Part shown: one piece after another, positions 6,712 to 28,089 of the stretch
Layout of the letters: each line of letters begins with the position of its first letter
Position numbering within the stretch: the first letter of the stretch is position 1
IMG/VR virus record: IMGVR_UViG_3300020204_000005
Reading direction: 5' to 3' (one strand)
From: a virus
DNA length: 64,000 nt
Notes under the pieces: generated by a model
What the model was told of the DNA's origin: nothing
Databases searched by the model: none
Seen by the model: the letters and a program-made list of their open reading frames with translations, nothing else
Position numbers and translations under genes: made by a program

Positions 6712-6714
6712 AAC

Positions 6715-10669: not shown

Positions 10670-13519
10670 ATGTCGAGTCAAAATATAAATCAATATGTAA
10701 GGAACAACCTATACCCAAAACTTTATTTGGATAGTTATGATATGTCCCTAACATCTGATGAAACAGATTTTAATCAGGAGGTTGTTTTCTCACCTTATTT
10801 AATCGCTCAAACATATGGTAATAAACTACCAATCAATATTGACATAAATAATATTGATACCGTCCAAAATTTAAATTTAACATATAAAAATTATAACAAT
10901 AACAATATTTTTGTTTCTCAAAATTATTACAACCCTGATAAATTAGATTTGAAATGTTTTACTGCAGAAACTTCATGTGATATAGGTTTAACAGGAATTG
11001 ATAACGGTTTAGTAAATAAAATGACAGGTCAAACCATAACATTTACTAAAGGTTTATTTTCAGATTTTTTAAAATTTGATAGGTTAAGTTTTGATAGAAG
11101 ATTCAAAATGTTCCAAGTAACGGGGTATACAAATACTCCAAATGTAAGATTTTCTGGTTTTAATAATACCGTATTATATGAAGTCGTTAGTAAAAACGAC
11201 CCTGTAATCGGTAGATACCACGAATTATATGGAGGGTTTTATCAAGGGTTTTATAAACTTCATGGTTATGATTATGAAATTTTTCCTGAAAGGATGACCA
11301 AAGGGTGGTCGGTCGAAATGATTCTTAAACCGAGATTATTTAATGAATATGTACTAGGACCTGGCGAGACAACATTAAATGGGATATACCCAAATAATAA
11401 AAATACATTTTTTTATTTTGGTACTAGAGCCGAGAATAAGTTTTATCATCATGCGGATGGTACTCCTGATTGTTTTACAGGTTATACTCGAGTAACAACT
11501 CCTTTAACGGGTTTAAGTACATGCGCATGTTGTGATTTAACAATAAAGAATAGTAGATGTATATATGTATACCCGCCAAGGTCTAAGGATGGTAAACATG
11601 ACCCTAGAGTTAATTATGGTTGTGATACATGTGGTGGTTTAAAGACAAAACAGTTATCATGCGGGTGTGGTTGCGACAAACCACAATGTGAGAATTGTGG
11701 GTGGGAATGTCAAACACACATTTGCCCAACAACACCCACCCCAACCCCAACTCAAAGTCCTACACCAACCCCAACAAGTAATAATTGTATTGTTACCCCT
11801 ACTTGTACACCTACATGTACTAAGTGTGATACTTGCGATGACTGTTTAGATTGTAAACCTGAAGGTTTTTCTTCTATTGAGGACACTTGTGAAAAGGACC
11901 CATTATACGACTCAATGTCAAATGCTTTTTCATTAAGATTATGTGGAGACCCTAAAAACCCAAAAATAGGTGTTAGATTTTTAAGATTTACAGGTGATTG
12001 TACAACTTCAGGAGAGTGTTCTACTAGTGGAATCACATACTCAACGGGATATACTATAACTGATATATGTACACCACCAATATACCCAAGATGTGAAAAA
12101 GAAAATCCTGCTTGGTTAAATGAAGAACATTGGTTCCAAGTTAATGTTGTTTGGGAAAGATATACTTGGTTCGATTACTGTGATTTAAAATATCGTGGTG
12201 GATTAGGTGATATAACTAAACAAGTTTATTTAGAATCTTTAGCAAATAATACAACCTCATTAATTAGTACTCCTTACACAAAAGAAAATGGTAAAGTTGC
12301 TGAAAAAATGGATATCATCAATTTAAATGAAAAATGGTTAATTGAGGGTAAAATGAGAAAGGGTAGATTAAAAATCTACATTAATGGTAAGATATTTCAC
12401 ACTATCGAGGATTTTGAGGAAATTATACCAAGAGCTCTAAATACTGATAAAGAAAAACAGGTTGGTGTACCATTTAATATCTCATGGGGCGGAGGAACAC
12501 AAGGGCTTAGAGAAAACTTAACCTTCTCCTCAACAACAATTCCTAATGGACCCTATATCCAAGACCCTGAGTGTTTTCCAACTAATGATTTAACGGCAAC
12601 AACATTCAATGGGTTAACTACTAATATTTTAATCGAACAAAATTTTGCAGGTACTTTTGATGGAGGAATCTCACAATTTAGAATGTATGTAGAACCATTA
12701 TCGGCACCTGAAGTTAAACACAATTTTAAATTACTTGTAAGTAAATTTAATATGTTTAATCCAGATTGTCCTAATTGTTCAACAACAATATGTAAACCTG
12801 ACGACATTACTTATATACTTTCTGCAGATACTCCAACCACAACAACTGAAGACCCATTTGGTAACGAACCTTTAGGTAGATTATATATTGAGGATTTAAG
12901 AGATAAAAATTATTTGATTGAAAGGAAGTTAAAATTAACTCCTAATAAACCAACTACAATGTATTGGGAGTCCGATGAATGGTGGGGAGACCAAGGAAAA
13001 ACTTCTGAATGTGTTGGTTACGCTTGGGCTCATTGGGTCGAGGACGGGCCAATCAAACATAGCGGTATCGCTCCAATAGTTCACCCAACAATTATTTATA
13101 AAGAAGCTCAAAAAATAGATGAGTGGCCTGGTGAAAATTATAAAGGAACTTCTGTTAGAGCGGGGGCCAAATATTTAAAGAGTATTGGTAGAATTGAGCA
13201 ATATTTATGGACTTATGATATAAACGTTTTAATATCGACTGTATTAACTAAAGGACCTGTTGTTGTCGGTACTAATTGGTACTCATCGATGAATAGACCT
13301 AATATTAATGGTTTAATGAAAGTTTCGGGTTTCAAGATTGGAGGTCATGCCTATGTTATCAATGGTGTTGATACAATTAAAAAACAATTTAGAATTAAAA
13401 ATAGTTGGGGTCGTTCTTGGGGTAAACAAGGACATGCCTTTATTTCTTTTAATGATATGAATAAACTTATTAGACAAAACGGTGAAGTTTGTTTAGCTAT
13501 AGAAAAAAGGTCTAACTAA
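10670..13519 (+). CDS. putative virion protein: Cys-rich/Thr-Pro regions, possible LamG-like domain, C-terminal papain-like (C1) cysteine peptidase
   Basis: C-terminal [12 protein letters not shown] (Gln/Cys), GGHAY (His), KNSWG (Asn); central CxC/CxxC cluster and PTTPTPTPT linker. Confidence 0.75.
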
Positions 13520-14082
13520 TGAGTGAAATTATAGTAATAAAAAGTATAAATTACGATGGTGAATTGGCGAATGTGTTATTTAAACCATCGGGGTCTAACA
13601 AAGTCATTAATTTGGGTAATATTACATTACCTTTTGAATTCGACCCTTCTTTATTAGTTCCTCCTTTAAAACCATATGGTGATTACACTATTTTCCTTGT
13701 TGAGGAAAGTTGTACTTATTATTTAAACGTTCCTGCACCAACTCCAACTCCAACACCTAGTAACACAACTACAAAAACCCCCACACCAACACCAACTCCT
13801 ACCCAAACACCAACTCAAACTATTGACCCTTGTAAATTTATTACACCAACACCAACTAAAAGTGTTACACCAACTAAAACACCTAAATCATCTCCAACAC
13901 CTACACCAAGTTGGGACCCGTGTATAACACCATTCCCAACTAAAACTCCAACACCTACTAATACTCAAACGCCTACATTAACTCCAACACCAACACTTAT
14001 TACTTATTATATCACGAGTGAATCGGGTAATCCTATAATTTCTGAAGATAATAATTATATTATTCCTGAAGATTGTGAATAA
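13519..14082 (+). CDS. Pro/Thr-repeat putative virion protein
   Basis: PTPTPT tracts from about residue 72 to 160; C-terminal [13 protein letters not shown]. Confidence 0.65.
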
Positions 14083-14102
14083 CGATAAATATATATTATT
14101 AA

Positions 14103-17100
14103 ATGATTCAATCAATAGAAATAACTGGTGCGTCAGGTACAGGTCCTTACGACATTGAGGTATGTGATATCACATTATCATTGTGTGTACCAATTGCGTC
14201 ATCAGTTCCTATACCACCAACCTATCAATTTACATTACCTAACGTTTTAAGTGGTGCAACTGAAGTTGTTGTAAGATTAATTGATTCTGAGGGATGTCCT
14301 TGTTTACAGGTATGCCCATGTATTTTACCTAGCCAAACGCCAACATTAACCCCTACAATAACACCAACAATGACAGTTAATTGTAATTGTCTTGAGTTTA
14401 ATAATGAGGATGTTATTGAACATACAATTTCTTTTATTGATTGTAGTGGTAATAATATAGACACTGTTATTTCACCTGAAACGGTATTAACTTTTTGTGG
14501 TAAAAGTCCTTCAGTTAGTAGCCCTTCAGTTATTGTTACAATAGGGGATTTTTGTGTTGGAGGAGTGTGTCCTCCCCCACCACCGACATTAACTCCTACA
14601 CAAACACCGACTAACACCTCAACACCAACAATTACACCAACAAAAACATTGGTACCTTTAGTGGGATATTTCCAATATTGTTGTGACCCGTCAAATATTG
14701 TTATTATCTCAACAATTCCTCTTAGTTATTATCCATTGAGTGGAGTTTATTATGTTGAAAGTGCAGGTTTTAATGGTTGTGTTACTTCAATACCTCCAAC
14801 ATTTTCACCTAATGCGTATGTTTACATCGATGCAATATCGTTTACTTCATGTTCTGATTGTGAATCAACTTATCCATGTCCTTCACCAACCCCTACTGTA
14901 ACACCTACCATCACCCCAACGGAAACCGTTACACCCACTGTAACATCGACCCCAACTACAACGCCAACAGTTACACCAACGGAAACCGTTACACCCACTG
15001 TAACATCGACCCCAACTACAACGCCAACAGTTACACCAACCGAAACTGTCACTCCAACAGTTACTATAACACCTACTAATACCGTCACTCCAACAGTTAC
15101 TAAAACATCAACTCCTACTATTACTCCCACTAAAACTTCAACTGTTACCCCAACTGTAACTAGAACCCAAACGATTACACCAACTAATACGGTAAGACCA
15201 ACTAATACTCCTACCAATACTATAACTCCAACAAAAACTCAAACACCAACTATTACACCAACACACACAATTACTCAGACTAATACGGTAACGCCAACTA
15301 ACACTGTTACCCCAACTAATACCATTACCCCAACAATTACAAGAACTCCAACTAATACCATAACACCAACTAATACACCTACTAATACTGTAACTCCGAC
15401 TAATACTATAACTCCAACTAATACTGTAACTCCGACTATAACACCTACTAATACCATTACCCCAACAATTACAAGAACTCCAACTAATACCATAACACCA
15501 ACTAATACACCTACTAATACTGTAACTCCGACTAATACTATAACTCCAACTAATACTGTAACTCCGACTATAACACCTACTAATACTGTAACTCCAACTA
15601 ATACTATAACTCCAACTAATACTGTAACTCCATCTATCACGCCTACTAAAACTGTAACACCTACTAATACTATTACTCCAACTATTTCATTAACACCAAC
15701 AAGAACTCAAACTCCAACTATAACACCTACTAATACTGTAACTCCAACTAATACTGTAACTCCATCTAATACTGTAACTCCGACTATAACACCTACTAAT
15801 ACTATTACTCCAACTATTTCATTAACACCAACAAGAACTCAAACTCCGACTATAACACCTACTAATACTATTACTCCAACTAATACTATAACTCCAACTA
15901 ATACTGTAACTCCGACTATAACACCTACTAATACTATTACTCCAACTAATACTGTAACACCTACTAATACTGTAACTCCAACTAATACTGTAACTCCAAC
16001 TAATACACCTACTAATACTGTAACTCCGACTATAACACAAACACCAACTAATACTGTCACCCCTACAGTTACTCCAACTATTTCATTAACACCAACAAGA
16101 ACTCAAACTCCAACTATAACACCTACTAACACTGTAACTCCAACTAATACTGTAACTCCGACTATAACACCTACTAATACTGTAACTCCAACTAATACTG
16201 TAACTCCGACTATAACACCTACTAATACTGTAACTCCGACTAATACTGTAACTCCAACTAATACTGTAACTCCGACTATAACACCTACTAATACTATTAC
16301 TCCAACTAATACTGTAACTCCAACTATAACACCTACTAATACTATTACTCCAACTAATACTGTAACTCCATCTATCACGCCTACTAAAACTGTAACACCT
16401 ACTAACACTGTAACTCCAACTAATACTGTAACTCCAACTAATACTATAACTCCAACTAATACTCAAACTCCATCTATCACACCTACTAAAACTGTAACTC
16501 CAACTAATACCATAACACCAACTAATACTGTAACTCCGACTAATACTCAAACTCCATCTATCACGCCTACTAAAACTGTAACTCCAACTATAACACAAAC
16601 ACCAAGTAATACTGTAACTCCGACTATAACACCTACTAATACCATAACACCAACAAGAACTCAAACTCCAACTATAACACCTACTAATACTATTACTCCA
16701 ACTATTTCATTAACACCAACAAGAACTCAAACTCCAACTATAACACAAACACCAACTAATACACCTACTAATACTGTAACTCCGACTAATACTGTAACTC
16801 CGACTAATACTATAACTCCATCTATCACGCCTACTAAAACTGTAACACCTACTAATACTATTACTCCAACTAATACACCTACTAATACTGTAACTCCAAC
16901 TAATACTGTAACTCCATCTATCACGCCTACTAAAACTGTAACACCTACTAATACTATTACTCCAACTAATACTGTAACTCCAACTAATACACCTACTAAT
17001 ACTGTAACTCCAACTAATACTGTAACTCCATCTATCACGCCTACTAAAACTGTAACACCTACTAATACTATTACTCCAACTAATACTGTAACTCCGACTA

Positions 17101-18893
17101 TAACACCTACTAATACCATAACACCAACTAATACTCAAACTCCATCTATCACGCCTACTAAAACTGTAACACCTACTAATACTATTACTCCAACTAATAC
17201 TGTAACTCCGACTATAACACCTACTAATACTGTAACTCCAACTAATACTGTAACTCCAACTATAACACCTACTAATACTGTAACTCCAACTAATACTATA
17301 ACTCCAACTAATACTCAAACTCCATCTATCACACCTACTAAAACTGTAACTCCAACTATTTCATTAACACCAACAAGAACTCAAACTCCGACTATAACAC
17401 CTACTAATACTATTACTCCAACTAATACTATTACTCCAACTAATACCATAACACCAACTATAACACAAACACCAACTAATACAGTTACTCCAACTATTTC
17501 ATTAACACCAACAAGAACTCAAACTCCAACTATAACACCTACTAATACTATTACTCCAACTATTTCATTAACGCCAACAAGAACAGTTACACCATCTATA
17601 ACTCCAACTAATACTATAACGCCAACAAGAACAGTTACACCATCTATAACGCCAACAAGAACAGTTACACCATCTATTACACCTACAGTTACACCAACAA
17701 CACCATATAGGTTTTATTTAATGAGTGATTGTTGTACAAATACTAAAACTAATGTAATGAGTTTACCGACCGCATTTGCATCTGTAGGAAATACTTTTGT
17801 TTCTACAGGAGGAGTTTGTTATTCGGTATCGGCAATCGTTGAGGGACCTGCAAATGTTACTTGGAATGGGGGTACTATATATAGTGGGGGTACTCCATCT
17901 GAAAATTGTACTAGATGTACCGCGGCCAATATTTGCCCTTCACCTACCCCAACGACTACAAAAACACCGACACCTACCCCAACAATTACAAGAACACCAA
18001 CAGTAACACCAACAAGAACTCAAACTCCAACTATTTCATTAACACCAACAAGAACTCAAACTCCGACTATAACACCTACTAATACTATAACTCCAACTAA
18101 TACTGTAACTCCAAGTAATACTGTAACTCCGACTATAACACCTACTAATACTATTACTCCAACTATTTCATTAACACCAACAAGAACTCAAACTCCAACT
18201 ATAACACCTACTAATACTATTACTCCAACTATTTCATTAACACCAACTAGAACTGTAACACCTACAGTAACTCCAAGTATTTCTGTTTCACCAACTAGAA
18301 CTGTAACACCTACAGTAACTCCAAGTATTTCTGTTTCACCAACTAGAACTGTAACACCTACAGTAACTCCAAGTATTTCTGTTTCACCAACTAGAACTGT
18401 AACACCTACAGTAACTCCAAGTATTTCTGTTTCACCAACTAGAACTGTAACACCTACAGTAACTCCAAGTATTTCTGTTTCACCAACTAGAACTGTAACA
18501 CCTACAGTAACTCCTACCATTTCATTAACGCCGACTAGAACTGTAACACCTACAGTAACTCCTACCATTTCATTAACACCAACGAGAACTCAAACCCCAA
18601 CTATAACCCCTACACCAACAATGACACCAACACCAACACAGTGTGGGGATGCTTCATGTTGTCAAATAGAATTATGTTTTGGGCCTGATTGTAGGGGGGC
18701 TTGTGGTTGTAATCAAACAGACACATTCTATCTACATTTACCGTGTGGTGGTAATTGTAAATTATCAAATGCGGATGGTATATTTGAGGACCCGAGGTGT
18801 ACAACTCCGGCAAATAGAAAGTACTATTCAGATGGGAATGATTGTTACTATTGGGATGGAATAAGTTCATTATCTTACGAAGGCCCTTGTTAA
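14103..18893 (+). CDS. giant mucin-like Thr/Pro-repeat protein with Cys-rich modules (putative glycosylated virion fibre/decoration)
   Basis: 1596 aa; TPTNTV/TPTNTI/TPTITP-type repeats over about 14880-17703 and 17940-18640; Cys-rich N-terminal, internal and C-terminal domains. Confidence 0.8.
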   Translation: MIQSIEITGASGTGPYDIEVCDITLSLCVPIASSVPIPPTYQFTLPNVLSGATEVVVRLIDSEGCPCLQVCPCILPSQTPTLTPTITPTMTVNCNCLEFNNEDVIEHTISFIDCSGNNIDTVISPETVLTFCGKSPSVSSPSVIVTIGDFCVGGVCPPPPPTLTPTQTPTNTSTPTITPTKTLVPLVGYFQYCCDPSNIVIISTIPLSYYPLSGVYYVESAGFNGCVTSIPPTFSPNAYVYIDAISFTSCSDCESTYPCPSPTPTVTPTITPTETVTPTVTSTPTTTPTVTPTETVTPTVTSTPTTTPTVTPTETVTPTVTITPTNTVTPTVTKTSTPTITPTKTSTVTPTVTRTQTITPTNTVRPTNTPTNTITPTKTQTPTITPTHTITQTNTVTPTNTVTPTNTITPTITRTPTNTITPTNTPTNTVTPTNTITPTNTVTPTITPTNTITPTITRTPTNTITPTNTPTNTVTPTNTITPTNTVTPTITPTNTVTPTNTITPTNTVTPSITPTKTVTPTNTITPTISLTPTRTQTPTITPTNTVTPTNTVTPSNTVTPTITPTNTITPTISLTPTRTQTPTITPTNTITPTNTITPTNTVTPTITPTNTITPTNTVTPTNTVTPTNTVTPTNTPTNTVTPTITQTPTNTVTPTVTPTISLTPTRTQTPTITPTNTVTPTNTVTPTITPTNTVTPTNTVTPTITPTNTVTPTNTVTPTNTVTPTITPTNTITPTNTVTPTITPTNTITPTNTVTPSITPTKTVTPTNTVTPTNTVTPTNTITPTNTQTPSITPTKTVTPTNTITPTNTVTPTNTQTPSITPTKTVTPTITQTPSNTVTPTITPTNTITPTRTQTPTITPTNTITPTISLTPTRTQTPTITQTPTNTPTNTVTPTNTVTPTNTITPSITPTKTVTPTNTITPTNTPTNTVTPTNTVTPSITPTKTVTPTNTITPTNTVTPTNTPTNTVTPTNTVTPSITPTKTVTPTNTITPTNTVTPTITPTNTITPTNTQTPSITPTKTVTPTNTITPTNTVTPTITPTNTVTPTNTVTPTITPTNTVTPTNTITPTNTQTPSITPTKTVTPTISLTPTRTQTPTITPTNTITPTNTITPTNTITPTITQTPTNTVTPTISLTPTRTQTPTITPTNTITPTISLTPTRTVTPSITPTNTITPTRTVTPSITPTRTVTPSITPTVTPTTPYRFYLMSDCCTNTKTNVMSLPTAFASVGNTFVSTGGVCYSVSAIVEGPANVTWNGGTIYSGGTPSENCTRCTAANICPSPTPTTTKTPTPTPTITRTPTVTPTRTQTPTISLTPTRTQTPTITPTNTITPTNTVTPSNTVTPTITPTNTITPTISLTPTRTQTPTITPTNTITPTISLTPTRTVTPTVTPSISVSPTRTVTPTVTPSISVSPTRTVTPTVTPSISVSPTRTVTPTVTPSISVSPTRTVTPTVTPSISVSPTRTVTPTVTPTISLTPTRTVTPTVTPTISLTPTRTQTPTITPTPTMTPTPTQCGDASCCQIELCFGPDCRGACGCNQTDTFYLHLPCGGNCKLSNADGIFEDPRCTTPANRKYYSDGNDCYYWDGISSLSYEGPC
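14880..17703 (+). repeat. degenerate in-frame tandem repeat array (units of 12 and 18 nt and multiples)
   Basis: Units such as actccaactaatactgta recur dozens of times; plus strand is strongly G-poor. Confidence 0.9.
18241..18514 (+). repeat. 48-bp perfect tandem repeat, 5 copies plus partial
   Basis: caccaactagaactgtaacacctacagtaactccaagtatttctgttt at 18241, 18289, 18337, 18385, 18433; encodes PTRTVTPTVTPSISVS. Confidence 0.9.
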
Positions 18894-18894
18894 T

Positions 18895-18923
18895 AAAAAA
18901 CCCCCACTTTTAAGGTGAGGGTT
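18895..18923. terminator. possible terminator hairpin
   Basis: aaaaaa-cccccac-ttttaag-gtgagggtt imperfect stem right after the stop at 18893; the A-run side suggests minus-strand or bidirectional action. Confidence 0.35.
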
Positions 18924-18979
18924 AATAATTATACTATTTTCTTTATCTTTTTTTTAAGTATTTTTTCAGTAAAAAAGAT

Positions 18980-20227
18980 ATGAAAATTTTTGTTCAAATT
19001 GCCTCATATAGAGACCCCCAATTAATACCAACAATAAAAAACATGTTTGAAAATGCTAAAAGACCAAAAAATTTGGTTTTAAGTATTTGTAGACAATATC
19101 ACCCTGAAGATGGTTTCGATAATCTTGATGAATATAAAAGTGATAAAAGATTTAGAATTATTGATGTTTTGTATTCAGAGTCTAAAGGAGTTTGTTGGGC
19201 GAGAAATCTAACACAACAACAATATCAAGGTGAAGATTATACATTACAAATCGACTCTCACATGAGGTTTGAGAAAGATTGGGATGATACTCTAATTAAG
19301 ATGATTAAACAACTCCAAAAGAAAGGGTTTGATAAACCTCTGTTAACAGGTTATGTTTCATCATTTGACCCAGATAACGACCCCGCAGGTAGGGTTCAGG
19401 AACCATGGAGAATGGTATTTGATAGATTTATACCTGAAGGTGCGGTTTTCTTTTTACCTGAAACAATACCTGGCTGGAGGGAAATGGAAGAACCTGTTAC
19501 GGCAAGATTTTATTCTGCTCACTTTGCATTTACGTTAGGTAAATTTAGTGAAGAGGTTCAACATGACCCCGAGTTTTACTTCCATGGAGAAGAGATTTCA
19601 ATAGCCGCAAGAGCATATACTCATGGTTATGATTTATTCCATCCTCATAAAGTTGTGATTTGGCATGAATACACTCGTAAAGGAAGAACAAAACAATGGG
19701 ACGATGATAAAGATTGGGCAACAAAAAATAATTTATCACATTCTAAAAATAGACAATTATTCGGTATGGATGGGGAAGAAGTTTTATTAGATTTTAGTAA
19801 ATACGGATTTGGTACCGAAAGAACTCTAAAAGATTATGAAATCTATTCAGGTTTAAGATTCTCAAGAAGAGCGGTCCAACAATATACATTAGATAAACAT
19901 TACCCACCAAACCCAACAATATATAATACTGATGAAGAATGGGAGAGTAGCTTTGCATCAATCTTCAAACATTGTATTGATATTGGGTTTACTCAAGTAC
20001 CTGAAAAAGATTATGAGTTTTGGGTGGTTGCGTTTCATGATGAAAAGGATGAAACAATTTTCCGAAAAGATGCCGACATCAATGAAATTAATGGTATGAT
20101 GAATGACCCTGATGGATATTGTAAAGTGTGGAGAGAATTCCAAACATCTCATAAACCAAAATATTGGGTTGTATGGCCTTATAGTGTATCAAAAGGATGG
20201 TGTGAAAGATTAACGGGTAATTTGTAA
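18980..20227 (+). CDS. GT60-like UDP-GlcNAc:polypeptide alpha-N-acetylglucosaminyltransferase (Gnt1/TcOGNT2 family)
   Basis: IFVQIASYRD, KGVCWAR, LQIDSHMRF.KDWD (DxH metal motif), FHGEEISIAARAYTHGYD, as recalled for Dictyostelium Gnt1-type enzymes. Confidence 0.85.
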   Translation: MKIFVQIASYRDPQLIPTIKNMFENAKRPKNLVLSICRQYHPEDGFDNLDEYKSDKRFRIIDVLYSESKGVCWARNLTQQQYQGEDYTLQIDSHMRFEKDWDDTLIKMIKQLQKKGFDKPLLTGYVSSFDPDNDPAGRVQEPWRMVFDRFIPEGAVFFLPETIPGWREMEEPVTARFYSAHFAFTLGKFSEEVQHDPEFYFHGEEISIAARAYTHGYDLFHPHKVVIWHEYTRKGRTKQWDDDKDWATKNNLSHSKNRQLFGMDGEEVLLDFSKYGFGTERTLKDYEIYSGLRFSRRAVQQYTLDKHYPPNPTIYNTDEEWESSFASIFKHCIDIGFTQVPEKDYEFWVVAFHDEKDETIFRKDADINEINGMMNDPDGYCKVWREFQTSHKPKYWVVWPYSVSKGWCERLTGNL

Positions 20228-21163
20228 ATGAAAAATATTAGAGTCCATAATCCCTGTAATGAACATACAAGATATTATAGAAATTATAATTACTTTTGGG
20301 ATGAGTTTACAAACTATTTAAAAGAATTCTTTAATGTTGAAGAAAACCGATACTTTGAGAATGCTCATAAAGAAAGATTTCCTGTTAATTTGAAAAAAGG
20401 AATCTCGGGTAATTTTTTATTATTAGAGTGTGAATATGTTATTGAAAATTTAGAAAGTGGTGAATTTGTTATTATGTCTGTTTCAGATGATTTATCTCAT
20501 GCAACTTTAAATGAAAAGTCAAACCCATTTTTAAAAAAGGTATTAATCTCACAATTTTTACCAAAAAAAATATTAGACCATGTTGGAGAACATATGTATA
20601 AATATTCCCCGTGGACATACTTCCAAGCTTCAATGGATGACTTATCAATATATTACAATAAAAGACAAGAAAAGGAATTTTTAAATAATACTTTATATTT
20701 TAAAGGGACTTCTTTAGAAGATAGAAAAATCCTGAGTTTTATTGACAAAAATATTATTACCGATTTTAATGTTATCACACCATCTAATTATTTTGATGAT
20801 TTGATATCCCATAAAATTGCTTTGTCAGTTGATGGTAGAGGTGAATTTTGTTATAGGGATGTTGAGTGTTTTGGGATAGGGGTACCCATTATTAGATATG
20901 AATATGTATCAAAATTTATTTCCCCGTTAATCCCTAACTACCATTATATATCATTACCAAGACCATCTGATATGGGTTTATATAGGTTAGGTAATGAAAC
21001 ACACGCCAAATTATTGGAAAATAGATACCATGAAGTTATAAACGATAACGAATTCTTATCATTCATCTCAAGAAACGCTAAAGAATATTATGATATTAAT
21101 TTTTCACTTAACTCTAAAATAAAAAACACATTTAATTTATTAAATTTACAAGATTGGGTATGA
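20228..21163 (+). CDS. putative GT-B glycosyltransferase (GT90/GT47/CgeB-like C-terminal half)
   Basis: LYFKG...KIALSVDGRGEFCYRDVECFGIGVPII. Confidence 0.55.
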   Translation: MKNIRVHNPCNEHTRYYRNYNYFWDEFTNYLKEFFNVEENRYFENAHKERFPVNLKKGISGNFLLLECEYVIENLESGEFVIMSVSDDLSHATLNEKSNPFLKKVLISQFLPKKILDHVGEHMYKYSPWTYFQASMDDLSIYYNKRQEKEFLNNTLYFKGTSLEDRKILSFIDKNIITDFNVITPSNYFDDLISHKIALSVDGRGEFCYRDVECFGIGVPIIRYEYVSKFISPLIPNYHYISLPRPSDMGLYRLGNETHAKLLENRYHEVINDNEFLSFISRNAKEYYDINFSLNSKIKNTFNLLNLQDWV

Positions 21164-22035
21164 TACACGAAAATATATTATATGGATACGATTACGATTC
21201 AAATAAAAATGTTCTAATAGGTAGAGAAGAAATTAAAGATTACGGTTTCTTTTCAACTTTTACATTGATGATTTCATCAATAATGGTTGTCTATAAAAAA
21301 TTTAAAAAAACCCCAAAATCTATAGATGGTAAATTCTTATTAAGAAAATTAAAAAAAGATTTAGATATTGATATGTATCAATATTTTTTTCATATTGACG
21401 ACAGTATTGAAATAAATTTTGACGAAGAAATTCCCGTCCCTTTTAGTCCTGATGACCAACACACAATATATTCTGAAAAGTATATCAAATACTATTTACC
21501 ATTTTTTAAAAAGTATTTTAATGTTAACACAAACATTACGGAAAAAATTTCCTTTTTAAAAGAAAAATATGGTATTGATGAGGATAACTCAATTTCGGTT
21601 ATTTACCGTGATTCTGATAAATGGACAGATTTTGGTGGGTTTAATTATATTTCCGCTGGAGGATATTTTAGAAAATGTAAGGAGATTATCGAATTAGAGA
21701 AAATAAGACCAAGAGTGATTATTCAATCTGAAAATAATGGAGTTATTAAAACATTTCAAGAGGCATTCGGTTCTGTATTCTTCACTGAAACTTCTTTAGG
21801 TAATTCTTCCGAAATTTACCCACCAATACCAATAAACGATGAAATTAGATTAGAATGGTCTGAATATTATGTTGCCTCTTTATGGATATTATCAAAATGT
21901 AAACATGTTATAACATACACTGGTAATAGTTCTTTTTTCATCTATTTAAATCGAGGGACTACAAACAATTTTACACAAGAAATAACTTTTACAAAAGATT
22001 ATAATGAGTTTTTTGTAACTAATAATAATATTTAA
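21154..22035 (+). CDS. putative fucosyltransferase-like GT (NodZ/GT23/GT11-like)
   Basis: SVIYRDSDK (variant of VHxRxxDK) and LWILSKCKHVITYTGNSS motifs. Confidence 0.6.
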   Translation: MGMIHENILYGYDYDSNKNVLIGREEIKDYGFFSTFTLMISSIMVVYKKFKKTPKSIDGKFLLRKLKKDLDIDMYQYFFHIDDSIEINFDEEIPVPFSPDDQHTIYSEKYIKYYLPFFKKYFNVNTNITEKISFLKEKYGIDEDNSISVIYRDSDKWTDFGGFNYISAGGYFRKCKEIIELEKIRPRVIIQSENNGVIKTFQEAFGSVFFTETSLGNSSEIYPPIPINDEIRLEWSEYYVASLWILSKCKHVITYTGNSSFFIYLNRGTTNNFTQEITFTKDYNEFFVTNNNI

Positions 22036-22041
22036 AAAACT

Positions 22042-23802
22042 ATGAAAATATCAATTGGTGACATCGTAGATAGATACTCTATCTGTAAATTAAAAAGTGA
22101 ACGACTAAATTTAGACCTGTCAGATGAGATAAGTCAATTAGAATCTGAAATTGTTAATTATAAAGACATTACACAATATGTCGGGGACTTATATGAAGTA
22201 AACGGTTTAATATGGGATTTAGAGTCTGATATACGTAAGGGTAATGAAGAAATTTTAGGTTTAGAGGAGATTGGCCGAAGAGCTTTAAAAATTAGAGATT
22301 TTAACAATTTAAGAGTAAAAATTAAAAATGAAGTTAATTCAAAATATGGGGAAGGTTTTATTGAGGTTAAAATGAATCATGGTAGTGAAAAGGAAAAATC
22401 TGTAATTATAACTTTAACAACAGTACCTGAAAGATTAGACAATCTAAAAGAAGATGGTTTAAAATTAGTATTAAAATCATTATGTGAACAACTTGATGAT
22501 GATTATGAGGTTCATTTTAATATACCCGAAAAATCCATGGTAACTAATAAACAATACAATATACCGTCTTGGATTAGCGAATATAAATTAAAATACCCTC
22601 ATCTAAAAATTTTCAGACCCGAAGATTTAGGACCACCAACCAAATTTGTACCTACACTTGTGAGAGTCAAAAATCCTGAAACAATATTAATTGTTGTCGA
22701 TGATGATTTAGTTTATCATAATGAAATGGTATCTGAACATAGAAAATATCAAAATGAACTTTTAGATAGTGTGATAGGTTACGATGGAAGAGGTTGTGAT
22801 GTTTTTTTACACAATAATGACATTAGGGATAGTTGGATACTGTGTGTTACTGAAATTAGAAAAACACATAGTTTACAACATTATAAATCAGTCTCATATA
22901 AGAAAAAATTATTTAAAGATGATTTCTTTACCGACTATTTAGGGTCGACTTTTTCAGACGATGTTTTGGTTTCGTTATATTTCAAAAATGAGGGTATACC
23001 GATGTATGTTGTTCCCTACGAAAAAGAAAACCATCTTTTTGAGACCAGAGAACTATGGGATGAAAACCAAGGTGTAACAACATTTCCTGTTTTAAGGTAC
23101 GCGTCTAGTGTTGAGGACACGGGATGTAATCATCCTGAGATGTTAGCAAAACAACCAAAATTTTTTATACCTAATATAAAAACAACTAATAAACATATAT
23201 CTCAGACTAACTTTACAACTGATAAAATTAATCATGGGTATATGGAAGTTTACCAACCTTTATTTACAAGTATGAAAAATGTGAATAAAGTACTTGAGAT
23301 AGGAATATATAAAGGGGAAAGTTTAGAACTTCTTTCTCATTTTTTTAAAGATAGTATAGTTTATGGTATTGATATAACTGATTGTTCTCATTTAAATTCT
23401 GATAAAATTAAAACATTTATTTGTAACCAAGAAAATATCGATGAATTAGAAGATTTCATCTCAAAAGAAGGTGGTAATTTTGATTTAATTATTGACGATG
23501 GCGGACATACAATGAAACAACAACAAATTTCTTTGGGGGTATTATTTAAACACTTAAAGGATGGAGGGGTTTATATTTTAGAAAATTTACACACTTCAGT
23601 TAGAGAAGGTTATAGGGATGAGAATGATATTATAACAACTTTGGATATGTTAAATAAGTTAAATGATGGTGGTGAATTAATTACCAATCATATAACAGAA
23701 GAAAATAAGGAATATATTAAACAAAACGTAGACTCAATTAAAATATGGACAAGGACTCCTGATTTTAATGAAAGTGTAACATCAATAATTAAGAAAAAGT
23801 AA
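22042..23802 (+). CDS. three-domain fusion: DUF6165-like coil + GT-A glycosyltransferase + sugar O-methyltransferase (MycE/TylE-like)
   Basis: N: ISIGDIVDRYSICKLKSERL; middle: ITLTTVPERL, DLGPPTK, VVDDDLVY, SDDVLVS; C: TDKINHGY, VLEIG, IIDDGGH, GGVYILENL. Confidence 0.7.
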   Translation: MKISIGDIVDRYSICKLKSERLNLDLSDEISQLESEIVNYKDITQYVGDLYEVNGLIWDLESDIRKGNEEILGLEEIGRRALKIRDFNNLRVKIKNEVNSKYGEGFIEVKMNHGSEKEKSVIITLTTVPERLDNLKEDGLKLVLKSLCEQLDDDYEVHFNIPEKSMVTNKQYNIPSWISEYKLKYPHLKIFRPEDLGPPTKFVPTLVRVKNPETILIVVDDDLVYHNEMVSEHRKYQNELLDSVIGYDGRGCDVFLHNNDIRDSWILCVTEIRKTHSLQHYKSVSYKKKLFKDDFFTDYLGSTFSDDVLVSLYFKNEGIPMYVVPYEKENHLFETRELWDENQGVTTFPVLRYASSVEDTGCNHPEMLAKQPKFFIPNIKTTNKHISQTNFTTDKINHGYMEVYQPLFTSMKNVNKVLEIGIYKGESLELLSHFFKDSIVYGIDITDCSHLNSDKIKTFICNQENIDELEDFISKEGGNFDLIIDDGGHTMKQQQISLGVLFKHLKDGGVYILENLHTSVREGYRDENDIITTLDMLNKLNDGGELITNHITEENKEYIKQNVDSIKIWTRTPDFNESVTSIIKKK

Positions 23803-23803
23803 T

Positions 23804-26182
23804 ATGGATAATTTTTTTGATAAGTCATTACATTTTTTAGGTAAAGTAGAAAATAATATCACCGCATTAAACATTGGTTCGATGGATGGTGTAATGTTTG
23901 ATGAAATGATTGGATACACTAATATGTATAACTTTAGTGTTTTATATGTAGAACCCATACCTTATCTTTTTGATAGATTACAAGAAAACATTAAATCTGA
24001 AAATGCTTTGTTTGAAAATAGTGCAATATCAGATTATAATGGTTCTATTGAAATGGTGACTATCGATAGGGAAGTAATTGATAGTGGCTTAGTCCATAGT
24101 TGTTTTTACGGTATGAGTGCGGTTTATCCACCTAAAAATGGTTTAGGTAGTGAGTTTGATAGACTCACAGTTGAGAAATATGGTAAATTAGTAAAGGTTC
24201 CATGTATTACATTTGAGACTTTATTGGTAAAACATAAACTTAATAACTTTGACATTCTCAAGATAGATGCTGAAGGTCATGATTATAAAATTTTTAAACA
24301 AATTGATTTAAAAAAATATACACCTAAAGTTATAAGATTAGAATGGATTAATTTAGAAGAATCAGAACAAAATGATATTATAAATATTTTTAATGAAAAT
24401 AATTATGTTTATGAAATTTCTGACCAAGATATTGTAGGTATACCTAAAAATTTTTATGATGAACTTAAAAATCAATATACTGAACCCATTAATTTAAACA
24501 ATGGACCAAACATTACTTTAGTTACGGGGTTATGGGATTTAGGTAGAAATAATTTAACCGAAGGATGGTCAAGGTCATACGAAAATCATTATTTAACAAA
24601 GTTTGATGAATTATTAAAAATCGAGAACAATTTAATAATTTTTGGTGATTCAGAATTAGAAAAATTTGTTTGGGAAAGAAGAAGTCACAATAACACCCAA
24701 TTTATAAACAGAGATTTAGATTGGTTTAGAAACAATGAATTCTACTACAAAATTCAAAAAATAAGAACGAATCCTGAATGGTATAATCAATCAGGTTGGA
24801 TTCCAGATTCTACACAAGCAAAATTAGAAATGTATAACCCTCTTGTTATGGGTAAAATGTTTTTATTACACGACGCAAAAATTCTCGACAAGTTTAATTC
24901 CGATTACATGTTTTGGATTGATGCGGGTTTAACAAATACGGTAAACCAAGGATATTTTACTCACGATAAAGTTATCAATAAATTACCAAAACTAACCAAT
25001 AAATTTACATTCATCACTTTCCCATATGAAACTAATTCTGAAATTCATGGTTTTACATTTGATAAGATATGTGAATTTGCAGGTGATAAAGTAAACAAAG
25101 TTGCTAGAGGAGGATTTTTTGGGGGTCCTAAAGAAACCATAACCGAGTCTAATAATTTATATTACCAATTACTTTCTCAAACATTATCTAATGGATATAT
25201 GGGTACTGAAGAAAGTATATTTACAATTATGATATACAAATACCCACAATTATTTAATTATAGTGAGATTGAGGGTAACGGATTAGTATGGTTATTTTTT
25301 GAGAATTTGAAAAAAGAAACATTAAATCTTAAAAGTGAAAAATCAAATAACGAAATTATAAAAATAAAAGATTTGAGTAAAGTAGGTTTATATGTTATTG
25401 GGTTTAATAGTCCAAAACAATTCGAGACTTTAATTTTTTCAATGAAAAAATACGACCAAAATTTCATTGACAAACCTAAGAAATTTTTATTAGACAACTC
25501 AACTGATTTATCAACAACTGAAAAATATTTGTATTTGTGTAAGGAGTATGGTTTTGAACATATTAAAAAAGATAATCTTGGTATTTGTGGTGGTCGACAA
25601 TATATTGCTGAACATTTTGAAAATACCGATTTAGAATATATGTTCTTTTTCGAGGACGATATGTTCTTTTATCCTAAGAAAGGTGAATTATGTCGAAACG
25701 GATTTAATAGATATGTGAGTGATTTATATACCAAATCATTAAAGATTATTGATAGTGAAAACTTAGATTTTTTAAAATTGAATTTTAGTGAATTCTACGG
25801 AGACAACTCTACACAGTGGAGTTGGTACAATGTTCCTCAAACGGTAAGAGAAGAATTATGGCCAGATAATAAAAAATTACCTGTACAAGGATTAGACCCA
25901 AATGCACCAAGAACTAAATTCGAATCAATTAAGTGTATAGACGGAATACCGTACTCAATTGGTGAAGTTTATTATTGTAATTGGCCACAAATAGTCTCCA
26001 AAAAAGGAAATTATAAAATGTTTTTAGAAACTAAATGGGGTCATCCATTTGAGCAGACGTGGATGAGTTACATTCATCAAGAAACGGTCAAAGGTAAAAT
26101 TAAATCAGGTATATTATTATTAACTCCAACAGAACATGATAGATTTGACCATTACGATGGTTCATTAAGAAAAGAAAGTTAA
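23804..26182 (+). CDS. three-domain fusion: FkbM-family methyltransferase + HtrL/WlaTC-like glycosyltransferase + GT-A-like domain
   Basis: N: IGSMDG, YVEP, ENSAIS, LKIDAEGHD; middle: TLVTGLWDLGR, FWIDAG, GGFFGG, GTEESIF; C: LLDNS, FFEDDMF. Confidence 0.72.
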   Translation: MDNFFDKSLHFLGKVENNITALNIGSMDGVMFDEMIGYTNMYNFSVLYVEPIPYLFDRLQENIKSENALFENSAISDYNGSIEMVTIDREVIDSGLVHSCFYGMSAVYPPKNGLGSEFDRLTVEKYGKLVKVPCITFETLLVKHKLNNFDILKIDAEGHDYKIFKQIDLKKYTPKVIRLEWINLEESEQNDIINIFNENNYVYEISDQDIVGIPKNFYDELKNQYTEPINLNNGPNITLVTGLWDLGRNNLTEGWSRSYENHYLTKFDELLKIENNLIIFGDSELEKFVWERRSHNNTQFINRDLDWFRNNEFYYKIQKIRTNPEWYNQSGWIPDSTQAKLEMYNPLVMGKMFLLHDAKILDKFNSDYMFWIDAGLTNTVNQGYFTHDKVINKLPKLTNKFTFITFPYETNSEIHGFTFDKICEFAGDKVNKVARGGFFGGPKETITESNNLYYQLLSQTLSNGYMGTEESIFTIMIYKYPQLFNYSEIEGNGLVWLFFENLKKETLNLKSEKSNNEIIKIKDLSKVGLYVIGFNSPKQFETLIFSMKKYDQNFIDKPKKFLLDNSTDLSTTEKYLYLCKEYGFEHIKKDNLGICGGRQYIAEHFENTDLEYMFFFEDDMFFYPKKGELCRNGFNRYVSDLYTKSLKIIDSENLDFLKLNFSEFYGDNSTQWSWYNVPQTVREELWPDNKKLPVQGLDPNAPRTKFESIKCIDGIPYSIGEVYYCNWPQIVSKKGNYKMFLETKWGHPFEQTWMSYIHQETVKGKIKSGILLLTPTEHDRFDHYDGSLRKES

Positions 26183-26206
26183 TCAGTTTATTTTATAGTA
26201 CCAAAG

Positions 26207-26229: not shown

Positions 26230-28089
26230 ATGGAATTCTTTATTAAGAAAAATGCAACATTACCCATATTAAAATTACAGGTAGTAAAGGACGGTAGAAG
26301 TGATTATGATAACTTTATGAAGACCATAGAGTTGTCCGCCATCTTCTTTTCTATGGTTGATGTTGAATCAGGTATTCCTAAAATTTCATCGAGACCTGCA
26401 GGATTTGTTGAGAAGGAGTTTATTGAACCGAATGCAGAACCCGAGTACTACATATATTACCAATTCCAAAATAGAGATACTAATAAAGTAGGTAGATATG
26501 AAGGTCAATTTATGTTAAGAACCGATGATGGTGTCTTAATATTACCTATCAGAGAAAAATTATTTATTAATATACAAGAATCATTTATTGCGAATGATTT
26601 ACCTTATGAAAGTTGTTATACTTCGGAATTCCCTTGTTGTGTTAATCATCCTTATATAACAACCACAACCACAACCACAACACCTTGCCCTAGTTGTCCT
26701 ACATGCCCTGAGCCAACACCTACACCAATAACCACAACTACAACAACTATAGAACCAATAACCACAACTACAACAACTATAGAACCAATAACCACAACTA
26801 CAACAACTATAGAACCAATAACCACAACTACAACAACATTTCCACTATCTGTTATTTTAGATGTTAATATTAATCCAGGGTCAATAATTATTGATTATAA
26901 TTTGACATCAAATCAAGTTTATTATGAAGAAATAAGTATGAGTTTTACTCATATATTAGGTACAACAGAAACGTCAATAACAATTGTTACAGGTGTAACA
27001 ATTCCTATTGGTTATACGACAGGGAATACCCAAGTAATTATAAATGAAGATTTTAACATATTAACTAAAAACGATTCTTTTGGTAATTTCATAGTCAACC
27101 CTCCATCATTAGATTGGGTCGTGTATGAAAATTATCCGACACCTACACCAACTGTAACCCCAACTTTGACACCAACACCTACCAAAACAGTTACTCCGAC
27201 AATTAGTGTTACACCTACACTTACAACCACACCGACTGCCACTTTGACGCCAACAGTTACACCAACCTTAACACCTACAAACACACCTACTAATACACCA
27301 ACATTAACTCCTACTGAAACACCTACTAATACTCCGACTAACACTCCTACAGAAACGCCTACTTTAACACCAACGAATACCCCTACTATTACCCCAACAC
27401 CATCACCATTACCCCAACTACCAATATTGGTCGATAACTGGGATACTTTATTGAACTACTCTATAACGGGAGTGACCTTAAATTCCGTGACACCAACAAA
27501 TACCGGTGGGTCAAACTTCCCTCTTGATGGTTATCCTAATGTGAATTATGAAGGTACGTTTGTATCTACCGAATCTAATCCATTAACAATTCAAGTAGGG
27601 TATAATAGCTCAACATTTGTTCCTGGTATGTATATACAGGTGAGTCACTCAAGTATTGGTTACGCTGTTGAAAATATTTTATCCACGTCTGGAGTTGCAA
27701 CGTTTGGTCCGTACAATTTATATTTTGGAAGTCAACTCTTAATTGAGTTGTTTTCCCCATCAATACTTTTTAAAATGGTAAATAACTCCACAAATAGAAC
27801 TGTTACAAGTGCTTCATATACTATTGGAGGACCAACAGTAAGTTTAGATGTGGGTTCATTCCCAATAAACTCAACAAATTCGGCGGGTTCTTTCACACAT
27901 CCTTCTAGTACAGGTGTGGCACCTGATGCAATAAATTACACTATTGGCGGTACAGGTAATTACACATACGTTGTACTCCGTAATGGAGTTGGAGTGAAAA
28001 GTCAAATAAATACAAATATTAACAATATAATTGTTACTGGTGTGACTTTCTCATCAAGTGATGAAATTATATTAGAAATGTATAACTAA
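26230..28089 (+). CDS. putative virion protein: BppU-like baseplate-attachment N-domain, Thr-rich tracts, Ig-like C-terminal domains
   Basis: [18 protein letters not shown]...[19 protein letters not shown]; poly-Thr, [10 protein letters not shown] and TPT tracts. Confidence 0.6.
26725..26838 (+). repeat. 30-bp tandem repeat, 3 copies plus partial
   Basis: ccaataaccacaactacaacaactatagaa at 26725, 26755, 26785, partial at 26815; encodes [10 protein letters not shown]. Confidence 0.9.

Follow-up and report, generated by a model that had tools for sequence, protein, structure and literature searches.

A GT60 glycosyltransferase, a tandem GT-A partner and Thr/Pro-repeat proteins: a candidate mucin-type O-glycosylation module in phages and bacteria

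Could a phage glycosylate its own threonine-rich proteins in the manner of a eukaryotic mucin? The question is raised by a 64,000 nt stretch of DNA from an uncultured jumbo phage (IMG/VR record IMGVR_UViG_3300020204_000005, hereafter the window) in which a giant Thr/Pro (T/P) repeat protein is encoded next to a glycosyltransferase of family GT60. Mucin-type O-glycosylation initiated by GT27 or GT60 enzymes is regarded as eukaryotic, Golgi or cytosolic, and to our knowledge glycosylation of phage-particle proteins has been documented in only a few phages. We read the locus, with a probability of about 0.6, as a phage-encoded cytoplasmic module for mucin-type protein O-glycosylation. Behind this reading stand the enzymes' family membership and fold, their conserved catalytic residues, the order of the genes, their conservation and fusions, and the positional enrichment of T/P genes. 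The first gene listed below begins a co-directional block and the last ends it, ahead of a DNA polymerase gene.

10670..13519, + strand: 949-aa protein, candidate substrate; a (TP)n/Cys-rich linker lies inside it and a papain-like peptidase domain at its C-terminus
13519..14082, + strand: 187-aa protein, candidate substrate, with a small N-terminal domain, then a T/P tract of ~107 aa
14103..18893, + strand: 1596-aa mucin-like protein, main candidate substrate (translation, composition, repeats)
18899..18923, no strand: GC-rich hairpin with a 9 bp stem, directly 3' of the mucin-like gene's stop codon
18980..20227, + strand: soluble GT60 (PF11397) glycosyltransferase P0002, candidate initiating polypeptide HexNAc-transferase (profile, fold, motifs)
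20228..21163, + strand: 311-aa cassette gene, possibly a GT-B (Glyco_trans_1_2 / GT90-like) glycosyltransferase (language-model lead only)
21154..22035, + strand: 293-aa cassette gene, possibly a NodZ/FUT8-like fucosyltransferase (language-model lead only)
22042..23802, + strand: 586-aa cassette gene with a DUF6165-like N-terminus (weak), a central domain with a DDD motif and a C-terminal MycE/TylE-like sugar O-methyltransferase
23804..26182, + strand: 792-aa three-domain enzyme, FkbM methyltransferase (~14-215), HtrL_YibB (236-491) and GT2-like GT-A (~530-792)
26230..28089, + strand: 619-aa protein, candidate substrate, with an N-terminal domain, poly-Thr and T/P tracts (~230 aa) and a C-terminal domain

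The initial annotation had recognised the 18980-20227 product as GT60-like and proposed a PF11397 search, in which it proves a genuine family member (E 2.9e-73, 247.8 bits against a cut-off of 21, with profile positions 44-93 unmatched). It carries the motifs ASYRD, IDSHMRF and GEEIS, and has the GT-A fold, DxH metal-binding motif and distal His of the GT27/GT60 clan, the metal-binding motif being intact and the fold ppGalNAc-T-like. A catalytic GT-A domain (~1-325) is followed by a beta-rich C-terminal domain of ~90 aa (~325-415), and the family is present as one copy in each of four related genomes. No PDB chain is matched by sequence or profile, and the closest folds are those of polypeptide-modifying GT27 enzymes, clearly ahead of generic GT2 enzymes. 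Animal and apicomplexan GT27 GalNAc-transferases nevertheless differ in belonging to another CAZy family, at an identity of only 11-15%, and in their ricin-like lectin domain, for which no counterpart was identified here by family match, although the phage enzyme has its beta-rich domain and a few fold alignments extend, at high rmsd, into the GT27 lectin region. The protist GT60 alpha-GlcNAc-transferases (Dictyostelium Golgi pp-alphaGlcNAcT, T. cruzi OGNT) share PF11397 and the DxH motif, with no ricin-type lectin domain recognised in the phage enzyme, and their acceptors are dense Thr/Ser-rich mucin domains (PMC8724618), much as the phage GT60 adjoins T/P tracts. Unlike them the phage-encoded enzyme is soluble, lacks a membrane anchor, bears the extra beta-rich domain and would work in the bacterial cytoplasm. 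By family analogy its donor would supply a HexNAc, probably GlcNAc.

The gene at 14103-18893 is open throughout, encoding 1596 residues with no internal stops, among them 595 Thr (37%), 261 Pro (16%), 90 Ser and 36 Cys. Thr had been described as roughly every second residue over more than 1100 aa, and this holds: in the core (residues 266-1255) Thr reaches 46% and occupies both i and i+2 in 43% of positions, and 1260 residues count as T/P tract by a strict window criterion. TPT occurs 197 times, the top hexamers being TPTNTV, TPTNTI and TPTITP, and the TPTxTx repeats (~1260 aa) lie between Cys-containing modules at ~1-265, 1255-1345 and 1520-1596; neither a TM segment nor a signal peptide was found in the protein. 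At the DNA level the gene forms a degenerate tandem array (periods 30-132 nt) with strongly negative GC skew, and the minus-strand ORFs within it are by-products of the repeats. The hairpin that follows is possibly an attenuator or terminator separating an abundant substrate gene from the enzyme genes. Homologs of the N-terminal part lie upstream of GT60 in 48 of 80 related loci, their tracts ranging from 0 to >1700 aa, and the non-repeat modules have no relatives among isolated phages.

Of the window's other ORFs of 100 aa or more, only 13519-14082 (107 aa; homologs in 16/80 related loci) and 26230-28089 (230 aa) have tracts satisfying the strict criterion, and outside 13519-28089 no ORF, the tail sheath gene 39387-42716 included, has one. 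The 26230..28089 product, whose N-domain is conserved in 69/80 relatives, matches low-complexity phrog_15511 as its sole family in profile searches. The T/P linker of the 10670..13519 product is visible in translation; this protein, syntenic in 19/80 relatives, matches phrog_16701 peptidase (E 3.3e-56) and, barely over the cut-off, Peptidase_C1 (E 2.5e-4). Relatives from this phage lineage have T/P tracts as linkers between domains in some ten proteins per genome, in separate places. The giant protein is therefore an extreme case and not the dedicated substrate first supposed, and adjacency of GT60 to a tract is, by itself, weaker evidence than the initial annotation assumed.

What is new here is a conserved GT60 partner, a protein of ~560 aa with two tandem GT-A domains, which in the window makes up the last two-thirds of the 23804-26182 product. 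Of 80 related phage loci, 68 have it next to GT60, as do the cultured phages XacN1 (ORF330) and Xoo-sp13 and bacteria from many phyla, and in several lineages the two are fused. PF09612 is matched by the HtrL_YibB domain (E 1.3e-18, 68 bits, cut-off 24.1) and by all 15 aligned partners, six of which also give GT2 matches, and an E-D-D motif is invariant in the GT2-like domain. Since its score lies below the NCBIfam YibB equivalog cut-off (66 vs 265 bits), the partner is a member of the HtrL_YibB family and not an ortholog of E. coli YibB. Its AF2 model comprises two domains whose best fold matches are tandem GT-A bifunctional enzymes, and the protein is predicted to be a tandem GT-A di-glycosyltransferase.

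The genes between GT60 and partner (P0003, P0004 and P0005) form a swappable cassette of sugar-modifying enzymes, each present in only 2-19 of 80 relatives. The 22042..23802 product (19/80) matches phrog_21658 methyltransferase, and its residues ~398-543 match PDB 3ssm (E 2.3e-16) and 8ia9 (E 5.7e-15); profile searches returned nothing for the central domain. The 20228..21163 product (14/80) has no Pfam, NCBIfam or PHROG match and that of 21154..22035 (2/80) no HMM match, the NodZ/FUT8-like lead for the latter naming a family borne by 11-12% of cluster members. The cassette of a related phage holds a gene of GT-D fold. Of the four additional glycosyltransferase or glycosyltransferase/methyltransferase genes initially proposed, 22042-23802 and 23804-26182 are thus borne out, whereas 20228-21163 and 21154-22035 lack HMM support. 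Nor does the notion of a fixed extend-and-cap pathway survive, as what is conserved is GT60 and the HtrL-type two-domain enzyme.

The expectation that GT60 and T/P genes occur together holds in part. In this phage clade a T/P-tract gene lies directly upstream of GT60 in 48/68 loci, and the linkage recurs in two distant phage lineages (L086 and L084) and in bacteria of several phyla; six relatives (L054, L061, L066, L065, L071 and L073), however, have GT60 but no strict-criterion T/P ORF in up to 21 kb examined. Across 43 bacterial loci there are 13 T/P-tract ORFs, none more than 4 kb from GT60, and frequently such an ORF is the sole small one next to the enzymes. Three of the 13, long minus-strand ORFs in high-GC Burkholderiales, are putative genes; 29/55 bacterial loci have neither T/P ORF nor partner. 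The phage loci show no enrichment close to GT60, with 46 T/P ORFs at 4-10 kb from it and 45 within 4 kb, and with tracts at about ten places per genome the clade's adjacency could partly reflect sheer abundance. A dense Ser/Thr/Pro domain is nonetheless co-encoded, in conserved adjacency, with a predicted initiating polypeptide HexNAc-transferase, making prokaryotic and phage mucin-type O-glycosylation a well-supported candidate.

These same distributions bear on an alternative that we consider unlikely, in which the tracts are unmodified linkers or spacers, the GT60 block acts on a non-protein glycan and their adjacency reflects a shared variable accessory region. Its targets could be host LPS, capsule or wall polymers (for superinfection exclusion or receptor masking) or an oligosaccharide, either soluble or lipid-linked. 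Such an acceptor is conceivable because HtrL_YibB is, in the descriptions available of the family, otherwise associated with LPS/LOS core loci, and polysaccharide/LOS loci typically hold HtrL_YibB, GT2, FkbM, GT10 and UDP-GlcNAc 2-epimerase; the genome-wide linkers of relatives, the GT60 loci without T/P ORFs and the absence of enrichment near GT60 in phages fit it too. However, membrane segments are absent from all proteins examined, the scanned window and cassette genes include no polyprenyl-phosphate transferase, flippase or polymerase, and the bacterial T/P ORFs do cluster at GT60. The GT27-like fold also argues for a protein acceptor, as do the characterised GT60 enzymes, all of which modify polypeptides (PMC8724618), and the presence of glycoproteins on XacN1 virions (PMC5852040).

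Improbable in our view is that GT60 and partner glycosylate a protein without T/P tracts, either a phage structural protein, as at the C-termini of mycobacteriophage capsid and tail-tube subunits, or a host protein during takeover. Substrate identity comes from gene neighbourhood alone, T/P genes are absent at some GT60 loci and the XacN1 glycoprotein bands are not assigned to proteins, all of which would accommodate such a target; against this, T/P ORFs recur beside GT60 across unrelated bacterial phyla, and the known acceptors of GT60 and GT27 are Thr/Ser/Pro-rich tracts (PMC8724618).

Gene content also bears on the acceptor residue. No prolyl hydroxylase family (PF13640, PF13661, PF13759) was found in four related phage genomes (G001-G004, two of them 91-100% complete, with control genomes giving matches), which favours Thr and is in line with the direct Thr modification preferred at the outset. 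A Skp1-type route, in which Pro hydroxylated by the host or an unrecognised phage P4H receives GlcNAc from a Gnt1-like GT60 before a PgtA-like partner acts, would suit tracts of 16-17% Pro, the Gnt1-pathway architecture of GT60 plus two-domain partner, the precedent of Gnt1 (the sole cytoplasmic soluble GT60 characterised, which uses Hyp ahead of a bifunctional two-domain glycosyltransferase; PMC8724618) and a giant relative, P0129, with four GT60 stretches that JGI names a Tpa1-like proline 4-hydroxylase, but is very improbable given those missing hydroxylases and a Thr:Pro ratio above 2:1 with Thr at every second position. As a pathway, Skp1 modification (PhyA, Gnt1 [GT60], PgtA [GT2+GT74] and further glycosyltransferases) is still a close parallel, in its soluble cytosolic GT60 followed by a single two-domain glycosyltransferase in which one domain resembles GT2, and in its non-complexed, soluble, nucleotide-sugar-dependent enzymes. 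It differs in its hydroxylase, in targeting one Hyp on one protein where the phage substrate would be a long repeat, and in that a variable cassette sits between the phage GT60 and its partner.

Returning to the mucin-type module, the same pairing in many phages and bacteria indicates that this phage probably attaches sugars to proteins of its own; we infer the acceptor, the donor, the sequence of steps and the virion destination as follows. The soluble GT60 would start glycans on Thr (and Ser) of phage T/P tracts with a HexNAc, by family analogy probably GlcNAc from the host UDP-GlcNAc pool. Substrates would be the 1596-aa protein and the flanking T/P proteins (10670, 13519 and 26230), and probably also T/P linkers in modular proteins that resemble adhesins or fibres and are encoded elsewhere in the genome. 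The partner (the HtrL_YibB and GT2-like half of 23804-26182) would then extend the chain by one or two sugars. Decoration or capping would fall to the cassette genes and to the FkbM and MycE-like methyltransferases, and exchange of the cassette among related phages would diversify the glycan. On the virion, where the 1596-aa and 26230 products may form the glycocalyx-like coat initially proposed, the result could be stiffened, protease-resistant fibres, possibly adhesive or shielding.

Comparable logic is seen in the serine-rich-repeat adhesins of Gram-positive bacteria, in which O-GlcNAc initiation by GtfA/GtfB is followed by stepwise extension, including by the GT-D enzyme dGT1. Both systems have very long Ser/Thr-rich repeats and, on our proposal for the phage, a cytoplasmic O-GlcNAc start and variable soluble glycosyltransferases for extension, whereas the adhesin initiator is GT4 and not GT60, the repeats are Ser-rich and not Thr/Pro, and a dedicated accessory Sec system is needed for export. 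Among phages, XacN1 carries homologs of GT60 (48% identity) and of the HtrL-type partner, and its virion proteins are PAS-positive and glycoprotein-stained, its GT60 being annotated merely as 'glycosyltransferase family protein' (PMC5852040). In XacN1 and mycobacteriophages, phage-encoded glycosyltransferases are similarly proposed or shown to modify the phage's own structural proteins (PMC5852040; PMC12619734, citing Freeman et al. 2023). As described there, mycobacteriophages carry their glycans on the C-terminal tails of the capsid and tail-tube subunits (Freeman et al. 2023, via PMC12619734), where we propose giant T/P repeats, and the XacN1 bands have no assigned enzyme, site or substrate (PMC5852040). 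Because XacN1 and Xoo-sp13, which have both core enzymes, are cultured, the module idea is directly testable.

A broader reading, plausible though short of even odds, is that GT60 and the HtrL-type tandem GT-A enzyme constitute an ancient, widespread, undescribed prokaryotic mucin-type O-glycosylation module for Thr/Pro-repeat proteins. Bacteria in six or more phyla might apply it to exported leader-plus-T/P proteins, and jumbo phages to the linkers of fibres and adhesins, its hypervariable cassette diversifying the glycan much as O-antigen loci do. It might also be the prokaryotic counterpart, possibly even the evolutionary source, of Gnt1 and PgtA action on Skp1 and of Golgi GT60 mucin initiation. 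If true, prokaryotes would have a new class of glycoproteins of great abundance (>7,400 protein clusters at 90% identity, 4,640 at 50%), and the 'PT linkers' so widespread in fibre and adhesin proteins of environmental phages would be glycan carriers. Cassette exchange would then diversify virion surface glycans, with effects on adsorption, particle stability, protease escape and adhesion to mucus or polysaccharide, and the Skp1 and mucin initiation pathways may have a prokaryotic origin.

The window is a 64-kb fragment (~31% GC) of a tailed jumbo phage, to which no near-identical isolate was found; the closest isolated-phage relatives of its DNA polymerase are only ~23% identical. It also encodes a helicase, SSB, a UvsX-like recombinase, an exonuclease, PhoH and a dUTPase, and no tRNA genes were found in it. 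Features outside the glycosylation block are as follows.

2579-4087, minus strand, double GT2-type protein (Glyco_tranf_2_5, E 2.3e-21, and Glycos_transf_2)
4059-5405, minus strand, Methyltransf_24 protein, also with a weak Nucleotid_trans match
5402-6001, dUTPase, within the 2579-8007 sugar-enzyme set
6001-6711, PolB-type exonuclease, within the 2579-8007 sugar-enzyme set
6715-8007, minus strand, glycosyltransferase (phrog_7162)
28409-31207, family-B DNA polymerase
39387-42716, tail sheath
47215-52320, giant ORF of 1701 aa, downstream of the tail sheath, without a Thr/Pro-rich (T/P) tract
52633-59274, giant ORF of 2213 aa, downstream of the tail sheath, without a T/P tract

The minus-strand genes at 2579-8007 form a second sugar-enzyme set, interleaved with the dUTPase and the exonuclease, and its synteny is kept in four relatives (L007, L054, L061 and L083). 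The two giant ORFs have essentially no family matches, only a weak one to the tail-protein family phrog_52. Scans of the window for sigma-70 promoters and terminators gave no more than shuffle expectation, and the TAACTTTG motif is not enriched in it (5 observed, 6.2 expected).

Sequence comparison places the 18980-20227 product solidly in glycosyltransferase family GT60, as the initial annotation had it, with matches to PF11397 (E 2.9e-73) and phrog_24687 (E 7.2e-170). Among 37 aligned relatives with identities as low as 36%, the DxH-motif residues D92 and H94, as well as H229 and E204/E205, are invariant. The family comprises the pp-alpha-GlcNAc-transferases with which Dictyostelium and T. 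cruzi start mucin-type O-glycans, and includes the cytosolic Skp1 enzyme Gnt1 (PMC8724618). Both the donor and the acceptor of the phage enzyme are putative and taken from the family. Neither phmmer nor profile searches against PDB sequences gave a match, the fold matches listed include no solved GT60 structure, and the link to GT27 is seen by fold comparison only.

The neighbouring gene (14103-18893) encodes a mucin-like protein of 1596 aa (595 Thr, 261 Pro, 90 Ser, 36 Cys), in which Thr makes up 46% of residues 266-1255 and occupies alternate positions (TPTNTV, TPTNTI, TPTITP), and small Cys-containing modules lie at the N-terminus, around 1255-1345 and at the C-terminus. The tract DNA is a degenerate tandem array (periods of 30-132 nt) of extremely negative GC skew; nine minus-strand ORFs of 86-202 aa inside it (14225-18870) arise from the ACN/CCN codon repeat and are not genes. 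The only T/P tract ORFs in the whole window are 13519-14082, 14103-18893 and 26230-28089, while the 949-aa product of 10670-13519 carries a shorter (TP)n/Cys linker. These four genes flank the enzyme genes in a single tightly packed, co-directional block, and membrane segments or signal-like N-termini are found in none of its nine proteins. The 10670-13519 product also contains a papain-like (C1) peptidase domain alongside its T/P/Cys linkers, and in the cultured phage XacN1 a C1 peptidase (ORF382) is likewise found near a giant T/P-bearing gene (ORF384), two genes away, so that the pairing may be a recurring one. Against isolated phages, tblastn found no match to the Cys module of the mucin-like protein or to the N-terminal domain of the 26230 product, and the latter has no family in Pfam, NCBIfam or PHROG even at E ≤ 5. 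Matches of the T/P proteins to phrog_15511 were not counted as homology because they are apparently driven by low complexity. Directly after the mucin-like gene's stop codon, 56 nt before the GT60 gene, a 9-bp GC-rich hairpin (18899-18923), with a T-run on its minus-strand side only, could be an attenuator of read-through into the enzyme genes.

Co-occurrence of GT60 and T/P tracts in phage relatives, as initially proposed, holds in part. In 48 of 68 loci of the phage clade, a T/P ORF stops within 400 nt of the GT60 gene on its upstream side, and in 65 one lies within 6 kb; tract lengths range from ~46 residues to over 1,250 (30-residue criterion) or up to 1,738 (60-residue criterion). T/P ORFs are, however, no more frequent nearby (46 within 4 kb of GT60, 45 at 4-10 kb), and several GT60 relatives have no adjacent mucin-scale tract. 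Nor are such tracts confined to this position: they occur at ~10 places in each of four related genomes that are near-complete, compared with 0-1 for a reversed-pattern control. There they link the domains of modular proteins, which carry Fib_succ_major, SprB, BspA-LRR and DUF285 domains; one of the proteins has a baseplate-wedge/tail-fibre-connector domain. Since the tracts are genome-wide and show no excess near GT60, the 1596-aa protein is most reasonably regarded as an extreme case within a larger set of candidate substrates spread across the genome. Lineage L086, 45% identical, has a Peptidase_S74 fibre gene followed by a 652-aa T/P ORF and then two GT60 genes, and in another lineage (L084) a 975-aa S/T/P ORF lies 1.6 kb from GT60.

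The most telling case for T/P tracts accompanying GT60 is provided by bacteria. In 43 bacterial loci with full 10-kb flanks, every one of the 13 T/P ORFs (at least 50 residues of tract; three of them long minus-strand predicted ORFs in Burkholderiales) is found at most 4 kb from GT60, leaving the outer 60% of the flanks without any, the chance of which is ~0.4^13 if positions are uniform and independent, the loci being partly non-independent. Neither a T/P ORF nor the partner enzyme described below is present in 29 of 55 bacterial GT60 loci. Many of the bacterial T/P ORFs near GT60 encode small proteins in which a leader is followed by a pure T/P tract, the leaders being TAT-like in Alphaproteobacteria and of a common RRKLLQALG type in Gamma- and Deltaproteobacteria and Acidobacteriota. 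Four of the latter (L116, L122, L140 and L147, from Deltaproteobacteria, Acidobacteriota and Gammaproteobacteria) share a twin-arginine-like leader (RRKLLQALG ... W.KP.I) before the tract and are encoded ~2.5 kb upstream of GT60 with an HtrL-type gene between, those of L140 and L147 ending in a hydrophobic anchor and basic tail. This arrangement suggests that glycosylation would take place in the cytoplasm, ahead of export. Congregibacter has a T/P protein, an unassigned ORF, an HtrL-type gene, GT60, an unassigned ORF and GT60, in that order. Gemmatimonadaceae have the order PqqD-T/P, GT60, HtrL-type, the protein directly upstream of GT60 comprising a PqqD-like N-terminus (PF05402, E 1.5e-7), a hydrophobic segment and a T/P tract (Gemmatimonadota loci L103:9230-9955, L099 and L104). 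The PqqD-like domain is normally a peptide-recognition element of RiPP pathways, and fusion of such an RRE-like domain to a mucin-like tract is unusual.

The enzyme block was likewise only partly upheld as a unit. We compared the best 80 of 282 IMG/VR loci with a close GT60 relative (77-95% identity), a set in which GT60 is present in 80/80 by construction. Counterparts of the 23804-26182 product occur in 78, of the 26230 product in 69 and of the N-terminal part of the mucin-like protein in 48, whereas the intervening window genes 22042-23802, 20228-21163 and 21154-22035 recur in only 19, 14 and 2, respectively. The DNA between GT60 and the conserved C-terminal part of the 23804-26182 product, 0.8 to 7 kb across related loci, is a variable cassette of sugar-modifying genes. 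That of the window encodes a MycE/TylE-like O-methyltransferase and two genes with weak GT-B-like and FucT-like leads, no Pfam, NCBIfam or PHROG family being found even at E ≤ 5 for the 20228-21163 and 21154-22035 products or the central domain of the 22042-23802 product. Other cassettes encode GT32-like, GT2-FkbM, UDP-GlcNAc 2-epimerase, GT-D and GT10 enzymes and, elsewhere, a sulfotransferase-like gene; those of the cultured phages XacN1 and Xoo-sp13 have a carbamoyltransferase.

The conserved part of the 23804-26182 product is its C-terminal ~560 aa, near full length in 68 of the 80 loci, in which an HtrL_YibB domain is followed by a second domain with an invariant E-D-D motif, a Glycos_transf_2 match in 6 of 15 members and a weak match to a solved GT2 enzyme. 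In its AF2 model a disordered linker connects two folded domains, and the closest structural resemblance is to bifunctional enzymes with tandem GT-A domains (LARGE1, LH3 and COLGALT1, and further Mimivirus R699, the chondroitin polymerase K4CP and heparosan synthase 2), so that this partner is a predicted double glycosyltransferase. An HtrL-type partner, 31-46% identical to the phage protein, directly adjoins GT60 in ~28 distant loci from many phyla. Of the 150 library representatives listed, at least seven are fusions of GT60 and partner, in either order, and a further fusion is encoded in one Myxococcales locus, Rosetta-stone evidence that the two act together.

GT60 relatives fall into 4,640 clusters at 50% identity, and a pattern scan covering a single genome of each prokaryotic species confirmed at least 563 GT60-matching stretches. 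The closest prokaryotic GT60s among the matches listed (70-83% identity) are in Bacteroidota/Saprospiraceae MAGs, on low-GC contigs (L088-L092; L092 is CALJOK010000014.1, 230 kb) that are probably genomes of this phage clade binned with their host. They therefore hint at the host, in agreement with the SprB, Fib_succ_major and BspA-type domains of T/P-linked proteins in one relative (G001). Three divergent GT60 representatives, when scanned against viral contigs, retrieved 0, 0 and 1 locus, and distant viral loci were retrieved by exact-sequence contig look-ups. A 6.9-kb TARA ocean contig (L085) holds a compact marine module of two tandem GT60 genes with an FkbM methyltransferase, a sulfotransferase-like gene and an HtrL-type enzyme, its last, cut ORF containing a P/T/S-rich stretch.

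Is the acceptor Thr/Ser itself or hydroxyproline (Hyp)? The latter may apply, as the characterised cytosolic enzyme Gnt1 uses Hyp, and P0129, a 2461-aa protein with four GT60-like stretches (several other representatives have 2-5 each), is named 'Tpa1-like proline 4-hydroxylase/peroxiredoxin' by JGI and may be a hydroxylase-GT60 fusion, hence a Hyp-directed branch of the family. However, the prolyl hydroxylase families PF13640, PF13661 and PF13759 gave no match in four related phage genomes (completeness 91-100% for two), and control genomes were matched. Direct modification of Thr/Ser, the initial preference, is therefore favoured on this sequence evidence, although a host hydroxylase may supply Hyp. 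As background that was not counted towards this choice, Dictyostelium PsA carries O-GlcNAc on PTVT repeats.

Both core enzymes are also present in XacN1, where ORF334 is the GT60 homolog (48% identity) and ORF330 the partner, and the partner homolog of Xoo-sp13 is gp300. Each of these phages has (TP)n tracts at ~10 places, with zero in the control, which in XacN1 include the paralog array ORF232-237, the giant ORF325 beside baseplate wedge genes, and ORF384. ORF325 itself is ruled out as a mucin-like protein, its (TP)n linkers being short and confined to the region near the C-terminus. XacN1 virions contain at least two periodic-acid-Schiff-positive proteins, seen as stained bands, and the suggestion has been made that these glycoproteins are due to the phage glycosyltransferases ORF328 and ORF334 (PMC5852040).

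A literature search found no description of GT60 in phages or bacteria, or of glycosylated phage T/P linkers. Our preferred reading, to which we give a probability of about 0.6, is a soluble, cytoplasmic O-glycosylation system acting on the phage's own proteins. GT60 would start O-glycans on their T/P tracts, the conserved tandem-GT-A partner would extend the glycan, and the enzymes of the swappable cassette would decorate it.
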